Of a stretch of DNA of 64,000 nt, positions 1-3,000 are shown piece after piece. Position 1 is the first letter of the stretch, and the number at the start of each line of letters is the position of its first letter. Source of the DNA: Escherichia coli (GTDB lineage Bacteria > Pseudomonadota > Gammaproteobacteria > Enterobacterales > Enterobacteriaceae). The position numbers are program-made. The stretch lies in NCBI RefSeq assembly GCF_017348835.2, contig NZ_CP071375.1. One strand, given 5' to 3'.

Positions 1-3000
1 ATACTGAAGCAGCGCACAAAAAATATTGCGCTACCGCCTCACACCCACCAGCAACAGAACCCACCACAGGAAAAGACGGTGGTCAGCATTGCCGTTGATC
101 CGGAGTCTCCGGAATCCTTCATGAAACGACCTAAACGTCGCCGCTGGGTAAATGAGAAATACACACGCTGGGTAAAGACACAGCCGTGTGCGTGTTGTGG
201 TAAGCCAGCGGACGATCCTCATCATCTGATTGGTCATGGTCAGGGTGGAATGGGAACAAAATCCCACGATATTTTCACGCTACCGCTGTGTCGGGAGCAT
301 CACAACGAGCTTCATGCGGATCCGCTGGCGTTCGAAGAAAAGCATGGTTCCCAGGTTGATTTAATTTTTCGTTTTCTTGATCACGCTTTTGCAACCGGCG
401 TGCTCGGGTAAAAGAGGTTACTGATGCGTATAGAGTTTGTTTTGCCTTACCCGCCGACGGTGAACACCTACTGGCGACGTCGTGGCAGCACATATTTTGT
501 ATCAAAAGCCGGTGAGCGTTATCGCCGGGCTGTGGCGCTTATTGTTCGCCAGCAGCGGCTGAAATTAAGCCTGTCCGGACGGCTGGCAATAAAAATTATT
601 GCAGAACCACCGGATAAGCGCCGCCGTGACCTGGACAACATTCTGAAAGCACCGCTGGATGCGCTGACGCATGCGGAAGTGCTCATTGATGACGAGCAGT
701 TTGATGAAATCAATATTGTGCGCGGTCAGCCTGTGCCAGGTGGACGGCTGGGCGTGAAGATTTACGAAATCAGAGGTGGTAACGATGGCGCGTGATATCC
801 AGATGGTTCTTGAGCGATGGGGGGCATGGGCAGCAAATAATCATGAAGATGTAACATGGCCCTCGATAGCTGCTGGTTTTAAAGGATTAATCCCGACTAA
901 AGTGAAATCACGTCCTCAGTGTTCTGATGATGACGCCATGATAATTTGTGGTTGTATGGCACGATTAAACAAGAATAATCAGTATTTGCACGATTTGTTG
1001 GTGGATTATTACGTAGGTGGAATGACATTTATGGCTCTTGCACGTAAGCATAGATGTTCTGATGGGCTTATTGGTAAAAGGCTTTATAAAGCGGAAGGTA
1101 TTATTGAAGGAATGCTTATGGCTCTGAATGTCCGGTTAGATATGGATATGCGGTAGGGATATATAGTGATGAGGGTTATGTTTTCTGTGTTTATAATTAA
1201 CATGTTTATTTTTTGATGGTCATGTATTGTGGAAGGTAGATAAAATGTTGCCTGGTGAATTGAAAATATTGATAATCAATCTTCATCATTAAATAAAAGG
1301 AGTGCTTATGTGGATTGTGTTAGTACTGTCACTGTCAACTCTCAGTTGGCATAAGGTAGTGGCTTTTTCATTGTTGACGGTGTCTGTTGTCCTGGCTGTG
1401 CTTAATGATATTATTGATTGGTCGGTGTTATTTTTTGTTGCTACAATCGTTTTTTTTATTATTTTGAAGTTCAACTGGAAATATAACGCCTGGGCTAAAT
1501 CTATATATGAAGTTGGCATAGTTTTATCAGCCATAGCATTATCTTTCCATCTATGGCCAGGGTTTCACAATCCTGTAGTGCTAAATTCTGTTACTGTTGG
1601 CCCTCAGAGTACTCCCTATACAATGTATTTTAATTTTGATAAAGCGCTGGTGCCATTTTTGTTAGTCCTGTGTACATCTTCTTTGTTTAAAAAAGAAGTA
1701 AAATCAGAAGTGTCTTTGTGGAAGTGGGGGGCTCTGTCGCTCTCTGTTCCTCTTATCCTGTTTTTGGCTGTTTTTTTTGGTGGATTAAAGCCAGAGATTC
1801 ATTTTCCTGAGTGGTTGCCAGAGTTTATATTGGCTAATTTGTTTTTTGTGTCTCTGGCAGAGGAATCATTATTTAGAGGGTATATTCAATCACGGCTATC
1901 AGAAGTAACGTCTCCATTGGTTGCATTAATTGTGGCGGCTTTGTTGTTTGGTTTTTATCACTATTCAGGTGGTGCTTTACTTGTATTATTTGCCACGTTA
2001 TCTGGTGTTGTGTATGGATTGTCATGGATGTGGAGTGGGCGTTTGTGGGTTGCCACCCTTTTCCATTTTGGTTTGAATCTGTGTCACTTGTTATTCTTTA
2101 CCTATCCATTTTTAAAACATAATTGATTTTTTCTATGGTTTTAAATTTATAAGACTGAAAAATAGCAGGACGTGACATTTGCATGAAAAATATGCACGGC
2201 AAAGCATTTACGTACGTAAAAAATCAGGTATGCTGTTAAGAGTGGTTATTTCGCCGCATAGCTTGACCCCGCCTCTGAGCGGGTTTTTTGTGCCCGCAAA
2301 GTAGCGCAGTGCGTTAAATGTGCTGGTAGTTATTAATACAGGTCTTTCAGCTTGCTGGCTTTTTCGGCAAGAGTTATTGGTGTGTCACGTTAACCGGAAA
2401 GGGTAAAAAGACATGCTGAAACAGCAGGATATGACAGAAACCGCCAGAGTTGTGTTTGATGAATTAAGCGTCACCGAACCGGCGACAGTCGGGGAGATTG
2501 CGCAGAATACTTACCTTTCACGCGAACGCTGCCAGTTAATACTGACCCAGCTTGTTATGGCGGGTCTGGCAGACTATCAGTGCGGTTGTTACAGACGCCT
2601 TCAGTCCTGAAGGCTTTTTTATTTGTGGTAAATGGGCGGCTGGTGGGTGTTAGCGGCACCTGTCAGTCCTTTGCTTATGTGTTGATGATAATTTACCTTT
2701 TGGGGCTATAATTGAACTAACCAATTGCTAATGAAAGTAAAATTATAATGGTTGTTGTCTGTTCAGTTATCATGGTTTGCTCCCCAATTAATATTTTTCT
2801 TGAAAAGGATACGTTGTCACTTAAGCCCGGCTCAGTCGTTCTGGCCACCAAATGCATCAGGGCGCTTTTCCTTATGCATTATGGCAAAGTTAAAATTTTC
2901 GATATAAACCATTCCATAGTAAGTCAATATCTGGAAATTCAGCATAAGCTGACAAGAACTCATCTGACTGACGTTCCGCTTTATCTGTCACTGGAACCCA

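Follow-up and report, generated by a model that had tools for sequence, protein, structure and literature searches.

Abi/CPBP proteins confer bacteriocin immunity in Gram-positive bacteria (Kjos 2010, as cited in PMC3578759), and in Escherichia coli the CAAX-family protein McsI makes cells immune to microcin S (PMC3316575). According to Firon et al. 2013 (PMC3578759), <1% of Abi-domain proteins lie in bacteriocin loci, and the label "abortive infection" attached to these proteins is a historical misannotation. Here, we analyze a gene of this family, referred to as the CPBP gene, in E. coli contig NZ_CP071375.1 (RefSeq assembly GCF_017348835.2), within a window of 64,000 nucleotides; the window is the whole stretch of DNA analyzed, and positions refer to it unless another locus is named. 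A preliminary description, made from the sequence of this window alone, had treated both bacteriocin-immunity and abortive-infection members of the family as established; the first part of this premise stands (Kjos 2010; McsI), and the second falls with the misannotation (PMC3578759).

The placement of the CPBP gene is not that of a bacteriocin self-immunity gene, its neighbors being the antiterminator gene Q, a 65-amino-acid winged helix-turn-helix open reading frame (ORF), an AraC regulator gene, and tRNA genes. We conclude that an Sp4-type lambdoid prophage carries the gene as cargo (a moron). With a probability of about 0.5, its product would be an active membrane protease of the lysogen, made from its own promoter, that protects the cell envelope against a membrane-targeting peptide toxin and is not a dedicated anti-phage system.

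An intact PF02517 family member

The open frame around the CPBP gene spans positions 1302 to 2126 on the + strand and holds 272 codons plus a stop codon from the ATG at 1308. A Shine-Dalgarno (SD) sequence, AAGGAG, lies at 1297 to 1302, five bases 5' of this ATG, and the homologs in the family alignment all start with MW, in agreement with it. A GTG at 1302 was rejected as the start because it overlaps the SD sequence and because the homologs all begin at the ATG. The coordinates given in the preliminary description were exact and match the RefSeq coding sequence (CDS). The DNA from 1100 to 2400 is 100% identical to that of E. coli O26:H11 11368, and the protein is identical to WP_000265267.1, named in RefSeq "CPBP family intramembrane glutamic endopeptidase." Its counterpart in O157:H7 Sakai is ECs_1085 of the lambda-like prophage Sp4, which is one residue apart (S79F) and is publicly annotated as "phage CAAX amino terminal protease family protein"; in PHROGs the protein belongs to phrog_13291, which is listed there without a function. 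Both the gene and its family assignment are thus already public (RefSeq; Sakai ECs_1085), in one of the best-known prophages of enterohemorrhagic E. coli (EHEC), and the gene is an ordinary prophage cargo gene, real and intact.

Comparison with the PF02517 (Rce1-like) profile, which the preliminary description had proposed as a check, gave a match with an i-Evalue of 1.4e-19 (70.6 bits; model positions 3 to 92 of 93), and all listed CPBP homologs carry PF02517. The three motifs that had been read from the sequence, EExxxR, FxxxH, and HxxxN, were all found, and in our family alignment of 34 sequences each of their residues is either fully invariant or conserved to 90% or more. The protein has the full set of Rce1 Glu/His active-site residues, which are invariant across its subfamily, and the subfamily has further invariant N-terminal residues of its own (H81, G85, N88, Y107, N109, D111, K112, E163, H165, P167, and W169). 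Hydropathy and an AlphaFold2 (AF2) model with ten helices (mean predicted local distance difference test score [pLDDT] of 89.4 and predicted template modeling score [pTM] of 0.89) agree with the polytopic membrane fold described earlier. The fold resembles those of solved members, the best structural matches of the model being SpdC/LyrA and Rce1.

Between phage-borne variants of the gene, the ratio of nonsynonymous to synonymous substitutions (dN/dS) was 0.13 to 0.25, at dS values of up to ~2, and no frameshifts were found in variants down to 55% identity. The catalytic third of the protein was the most constrained (dN/dS, 0.11 to 0.19). Residues 1 to 75, which comprise the first three transmembrane helices (1308 to 1532), were the least constrained (dN/dS, 0.25 to 0.53) and hold about half of the amino acid differences between the phage-borne variants. 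This substitution record indicates that purifying selection maintains the CPBP gene. Together with the hundreds of full-length homologs and the invariant motif residues, the dN/dS values place the family assignment far beyond chance. These data show that the CPBP protein is an intact member of the PF02517 family and a ten-helix inner-membrane protein.

Cargo status, linkage to Q, and chromosomal relatives

The CPBP gene is present in ~570 of 5,426 complete E. coli genomes, and carriers among the matches listed are mostly O157:H7, O26, O111, and O145 strains. A query with the Q region matched 612 genomes, 570 of which hold the CPBP gene directly after Q. The other 42 matches cover less of the query, and the three shown have 82 to 84% identical Q alleles without the CPBP gene. 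Linkage of the CPBP gene to one Q allele is therefore strict. The gene was not found in 50,697 deposited phage genomes by tblastn or megablast; the only matches there were to the 65-amino-acid ORF and AraC region, in Stx2 phages and phiP27. Prophage-derived contigs in IMG/VR do contain the gene, and at these loci (n = 42) the same Q family lies at -530 to -155 in 40 and a conserved block lies near +900 in 39.

Variants of the gene occupy comparable positions. In Stx1d prophages, a variant with 84% identity lies between Q and stx1dA (L009, 7001 to 9833), and all four complete genomes that matched a full Q-CPBP-stx1d query hold it there. One IMG/VR contig (L043) has a CPBP gene identical to that of the window, with a Stx2-like A subunit ~2.5 kb downstream. 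Variants with 62% and 59% identity sit after Q genes of 82 to 83% identity, and a variant with 55% identity (L062 type) follows the unrelated Q family phrog_127. A Salmonella variant (L071) was dropped as evidence on context because insertion sequence (IS) elements have destroyed its upstream region. In a rough neighbor-joining tree without bootstrap, the Escherichia/Shigella phage-borne variants (59 to 100% identity) form one clade, and the next clade out comprises the 55% prophage variant, the Salmonella variant, the chromosomal sequence P0010, and the sequence P0011.

The GC content of the CPBP gene is 0.38 (0.355 at third codon positions [GC3]), compared with ~0.49 in its flanks, and low GC relative to the flanks was also seen in other phage-borne variants. 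The gene occupies a slot, running from the stop codon of Q to a conserved noncoding block, whose contents vary between nothing, nmpC, and the CPBP gene. In the Stx2a phage EH2201 the slot is empty, and the block begins 37 nucleotides (nt) after the Q stop codon; in mEp332 and the K-12 prophage DLP12 the slot holds the porin gene nmpC. Positions 2207 to 2288 of the block are 87% identical to the segment just 5' of the holin gene in mEp332 and DLP12 and ~90% identical to the post-Q segment of EH2201. Counterparts of the block were located at L022 4196 to 4277, at L018 4538 to 4619, and in L019 from 3001; in DLP12, the block lies 5' of essD.

In supplement 2 of PMC2241611, which reports a microarray time course of uninduced Sakai, ECs1085 is listed among the O157-specific genes with significant regulation, with a log2 index of approximately +0.8 in exponential phase and -0.7 after the transition (false discovery rate, 0.004). 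It falls in QT cluster 1 together with the Bor homolog ECs1625. The neighbor ECs1087 and most prophage probes in the portion of the table considered fall in cluster 2, which rises, and the signal of the AraC-like gene increases in stationary phase, in contrast to that of the CPBP gene. A growth-phase signal in uninduced Sakai, albeit in relative values, is what would be expected of a moron expressed from a repressed prophage. As for signals of its own, consensus-level promoter matches lie at 1217 to 1289, and the terminator downstream of the gene (2268 to 2289) may belong to the late leader. The low GC, the patchy presence among related phages, the promoter-like sites with SD sequence and terminator, and the distinct expression signal bear out the moron status proposed in the preliminary description.

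The position of the late promoter PR' determines how the gene would be read. In Stx phages, PR' is constitutively active, and in lysogens its transcripts end a short distance further on (PMC7547250). We favor a position of PR' in the conserved block, which would place the CPBP gene between Q and PR'. The block contains a PR'-like candidate, TTTACG-16-TATGCT, at 2208 to 2235, with a hairpin 33 nt further on, and it is the sole noncoding element common to the window, DLP12/mEp332, and the 62% lineage, whose Q proteins are 82 to 86% identical; the Q-CPBP spacer could not be aligned between lineages. The same geometry is seen after the unrelated Q of L062 (3739 to 3830), in a textbook unit that consists of TTGATT-18-TATGCT and, 31 nt beyond it, a hairpin with a T run. 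There, the PR'-like promoter and strong terminator lie between Q and the 55% CPBP gene, so that this gene is downstream of both. With PR' in the block, transcription of the CPBP gene of the window would start at its own promoter in the lysogen, and after induction the gene would be read together with Q. Alternatively, the best conserved sigma-70-like site in the spacer, TTGCCT-17-GATAAT at 1248 to 1276 (TTGCCA-17-GATAAT in the 84% variant, in which the strong SD sequence is also kept), may be PR' itself, and the CPBP gene would then lie inside a constitutively transcribed PR'-tR' leader. No Rfam family matches the leader. Of the primers of a published DLP12 reporter, that designated "-121" maps to L022 position 3754, so that transcription would start ~320 nt 5' of the block, and no site was found for the reverse primer.

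Outside phages, full-length homologs with ~50% identity occur across the Enterobacterales and in Pseudomonas aeruginosa, and homologs at an E value of <=1e-10 form 992 clusters at 50% identity. The CPBP protein belongs with a gammaproteobacterial subfamily whose members have ~275 amino acids. The chromosomal orthologs are single genes at ordinary sites, with a GC content that matches the host (0.43 to 0.71). The ortholog lies between modF and galE or gpmA in Hafnia, Providencia, and Photorhabdus, between a cupin gene and an amino acid permease gene in Dickeya, between an asparaginase gene and ycaO in Serratia, between an EAL gene and an ABC transporter gene in Enterobacter, and between gpmI and M23 peptidase/ctpA genes in P. 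aeruginosa (L015, 7001 to 7819). The P. aeruginosa homolog has 60% identity over 75% of the length. Its GC content of 0.71 and GC3 of 0.92, together with its site, indicate that the CPBP subfamily is native there too. The only conserved neighborhood is the lineage-specific synteny modF-X-gpmA/galE; at the loci examined, the neighbors are metabolic and transport genes, and no recurring partner, toxin, or export gene was found beside the orthologs. We conclude that the CPBP gene is a low-GC xenolog of a chromosomal single-copy gene of many Enterobacterales and of Pseudomonas. Our analysis thus adds to the public annotation the strict Q linkage, the Q-to-terminator slot shared with nmpC, the Q-stx1d variant, and the chromosomal ancestry. 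Knowing that the interval from Q to the leader/terminator block is a variable slot helps to annotate the late-control regions of QuuD-type lambdoid phages.

Possible functions in the lysogen

We propose that a sigma-70 promoter belonging to the CPBP gene itself, within the 151-nt spacer, would drive synthesis of the protein in the lysogen; expression from a PR' located in that spacer is less likely. The protein would insert in the inner membrane and cleave a peptide, or a segment of a membrane protein, that gains access to its cavity from the lipid bilayer. The payoff would be shielding of the lysogen envelope from a membrane-targeting peptide toxin, an orphan form of microcin- or bacteriocin-type immunity, and the cargo gene would supply E. 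coli with an envelope function for which other enterics have a chromosomal gene. Protection from a peptide toxin was chosen as the payoff because it is most consistent with the experimental record of the family; by analogy with that record, peptide-toxin immunity is plausible.

Several points weigh against this proposal. No toxin or conserved partner gene lies beside the CPBP gene or at the ortholog loci examined, and this counts against immunity because characterized immunity CPBPs sit inside bacteriocin or microcin operons. A tblastn search of PLSDB (E <= 0.01) gave as its sole Escherichia plasmid match an EDL933 record carrying the same CPBP gene, and the similarity to McsI-type genes appears remote at best. 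Conserved catalytic residues are not proof of proteolysis, since SpdC serves another enzyme as a scaffold and Abx1 does not need its protease residues to function (PMC3578759). The Sakai microarray values are relative only and cannot place a promoter, and the published numbering of the DLP12 reporter fits neither PR' position, so that the placement of PR' is ambiguous. Finally, no paper in the searched literature names ECs1085 or ECs1087 in its text.

The case of SpdC and Abx1 leads to the alternative that survives best, although we consider it rather unlikely. The CPBP protein may be a nonproteolytic scaffold or regulator that binds a host inner-membrane enzyme or sensor kinase and thereby retunes envelope or virulence gene expression, as modeled on SpdC/LyrA of Staphylococcus aureus, the partner of the glucosaminidase SagB and the kinase WalK, and on Abx1 of group B Streptococcus, which binds the kinase CovS. 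Against such a role, the catalytic residues show no variation in a subfamily found in both the Enterobacterales and Pseudomonas, the catalytic third is the part under the strongest constraint, and no partner gene is linked. The faster-evolving N terminus, for its part, may simply be a weakly constrained membrane anchor.

The preliminary description had suggested a role in superinfection exclusion or immunity. An exclusion or abortive infection factor would block the entry of incoming phage DNA or kill the infected cell, and a prophage-borne inner-membrane protein with a signal in uninduced cells would suit such a role, as would its site, since the surroundings of Q and the lysis genes are a known site of lysogenic-conversion genes. 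Small membrane proteins are common among prophage exclusion factors. We nevertheless judge this explanation improbable. No defense-protein model in PADLOC-DB v2 matched the CPBP protein at E <= 0.1, and the name Abi, being a misannotation (PMC3578759), is not evidence. In the literature searched, no CPBP defense system was found: searches on CPBP with phage defense and on CAAX with Shiga toxin and antiterminator returned nothing relevant, and matches for CPBP with prophage concern Gram-positive attB sites or bacteriocin loci. Moreover, the orthologs are housekeeping-like chromosomal genes of host-like GC outside defense islands, the variants diverge slowly under purifying selection, unlike the rapid turnover typical of defense genes, and the gene is missing from the deposited phage genomes searched. 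The anti-phage reading has the least support, and because the Abi premise fails, no PADLOC match exists, and no bacteriocin-type neighbor is present, exclusion or immunity as proposed is only a guess.

Slightly less probable again is a role in the lytic cycle, in which the gene would be cotranscribed with Q from PR, or be the first late gene as in L062, and its product would adjust lysis or keep phages from readsorbing by acting on targets such as holin, antiholin, spanin, or host membrane proteins. No terminator-like hairpin was found in the spacer between Q and the CPBP gene (1157 to 1307), and in four lineages with two unrelated Q families the gene adjoins the late promoter region 5' of the lysis cassette, both of which would suit such a role. 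However, the CPBP gene is absent from related phages that share the Q family and the lysis genes, and it is intact in Sakai Sp4 despite the IS629-inverted lysis region. The signal in uninduced cells is unlike that of neighboring phage genes, and the chromosomal orthologs function without any phage. That the gene is a functionless hitchhiker, carried between Q and the site of action of Q, which must stay linked, would account for its strict linkage to one Q allele and its location before the conserved block but is very improbable given the low dN/dS at high dS, the intact frames and invariant catalytic residues, and the conserved strong SD sequence.

Returning to the protease proposal, a bolder form of it is possible, although we hold it with more doubt than confidence: the phage-disseminated clade, long kept beside Q (55 to 100% identity; two unrelated Q families), may be a true lysogenic-conversion factor with a defined substrate. 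Its scope would be a CPBP clade in most big-six/O157 EHEC lineages, found between Q and stx1d in Stx1d phages. If true, the protein could cleave a gut microcin or membrane-active peptide of ruminant or human hosts, or process a host envelope protein in a way that alters colonization, and it would be the first CPBP protease from a phage of Gram-negative bacteria to be defined functionally. As it stands, the result adds little; roughly a tenth of complete E. coli genomes have the phage-borne gene. Discovery of a phenotype in peptide-toxin immunity, envelope signaling, or colonization would make the gene a new class of lysogenic-conversion gene in EHEC prophages and give a handle on the chromosomal orthologs in Hafnia, Providencia, Dickeya, Serratia, and Pseudomonas.

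Surroundings and comparison with known systems

Table 1. Features of the window around the CPBP gene and at the right end of the prophage
Feature	Position	Strand	Basis or remark
Antiterminator Q (PF06530/phrog_79 type)	776-1156	+	86% amino acid identity to DLP12 QuuD
Q-CPBP spacer, AT-rich, with sigma-70-like sites and SD sequence	1157-1307	+	Consensus matches; putative promoter function
CPBP/Rce1-like intramembrane glutamic endopeptidase CDS, 272 amino acids	1308-2126	+	ORF call, PF02517, RefSeq CDS
CPBP motif 1, EESLFR (E185, E186, R190)	1860-1877 (residues 185-190)	+	Invariant in family alignment
CPBP motif 2, FGFYH (F214, H218)	1947-1961 (residues 214-218)	+	Invariant in family alignment
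CPBP motif 3, HFGLN	2064-2078 (residues 253-257)	+	H253 invariant; N257 in at least 90% of sequences
Conserved noncoding block, right edge of slot	2207-2290	+	Homology; presumptive late leader/tR', putative promoter role
Intrinsic terminator, CCCGCC-TCTGAG-CGGG plus T run	2268-2289	+	3' end of conserved block
65-amino-acid winged-helix-like ORF (phrog_331)	2413-2610	+	"TrmB family transcriptional regulator" in some records
AraC-family regulator, prophage Psr/PatE/YdeO-like kind	2748-3461	+	Separate transcription unit
Three prophage tRNA genes (Ile, Arg, Arg)	3490-3736	+	3' of AraC-like gene; ileZ-argN-argO in Sakai
STnc100 small RNA (Rfam RF02076)	3816-4006	+	138 bits versus gathering score of 47
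EspF-repeat effector gene, prophage right end	~32436-33188	-	Placed by colinearity with O26 11368
Core chromosome (torS, etk, gfc, hya, appC)	33500-58000		100% identical to pig isolate E. coli PE164

The gene order is DUF968, RusA, Q, CPBP, the winged-helix ORF, the AraC-like regulator, tRNA Ile/Arg/Arg, a NanS-p-type esterase, holin/lysozyme/Rz, and terminase (Table 1). The PF06530-type Q gene stops 151 nt 5' of the CPBP gene, as its earlier description as a neighbor of Q implied. The 65-amino-acid ORF has ~90% DNA identity to sequences in Stx2 phages and phiP27, where, the CPBP gene being absent, it lies directly after Q. The AraC-family regulator resembles YdeO/GadX below the NCBIfam cutoff, and regulators of the Psr/PatE kind have been described for EHEC. 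The STnc100 match lies directly past the tRNA triplet, where Stx phages hold their stx genes. In Sakai Sp4 (L020, 32131 to 36376, compared with 6206 to 9701 of the window), the lysis region is inverted and flanked by IS629/IS1203 copies, and the CPBP gene is intact. Colinearity of the window with O26 11368 ends at ~10 kb. A second prophage in the window was considered as an internal control and rejected, as there is no second copy of the region and core chromosome begins at ~33.5 kb.

Among described relatives, the CPBP proteases of the myxosortase/CTERM-sorting type (MrtC, MrtP, and MrtS; NCBIfam) show weak hidden Markov model similarity to the CPBP protein over the catalytic core. The scores all fall far below the curated NCBIfam myxosortase cutoffs (best, 46.2 bits versus 435; Mrt_core, 29.6 versus 100), and no CTERM-type substrate genes lie near the CPBP gene. 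The type II CAAX prenyl endopeptidase Rce1 of Methanococcus maripaludis (PDB 4CAD) has ~15 to 17% identity to the CPBP protein, which differs from it by ~170 extra N-terminal residues with invariant H81, PGFxN, YxNxDK, and ExH-P-W elements and, in the AF2 model, by a beta-hairpin at residues 90 to 107. Since prenylated CAAX substrates are not known in bacteria (PMC3578759), the substrate of the CPBP protein must differ from that of Rce1.

The best structural match is SpdC/LyrA of S. aureus (PDB 6U0O, SagB-SpdC complex), at 14% identity. SpdC is a Gram-positive protein and the partner of a cell wall hydrolase, and it is suggested to lack protease activity (PMC3578759), whereas the catalytic residues of the CPBP protein are invariant. 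PlnI, SkkI, and McsI (E. coli G3/10) belong to the same superfamily and, as membrane proteins, give protection from a membrane-active peptide. Their genes lie inside a toxin operon beside the structural gene, whereas the CPBP gene and the ortholog loci examined have no toxin or export genes nearby, and McsI has 216 amino acids compared with 272 for the CPBP protein.

As a cargo gene, the CPBP gene most resembles nmpC of DLP12 and mEp332, which occupies the very same slot, and stx, which occupies the same part of the genome; all share an atypical composition and a variable presence among related phages. The products differ, being a porin and a toxin for nmpC and stx and a predicted inner-membrane protease family member for the CPBP gene. 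The CPBP gene is transcribed in the direction of Q, whereas nmpC lies on the opposite strand, and it lies upstream of the conserved block, whereas the stx genes lie downstream of it.

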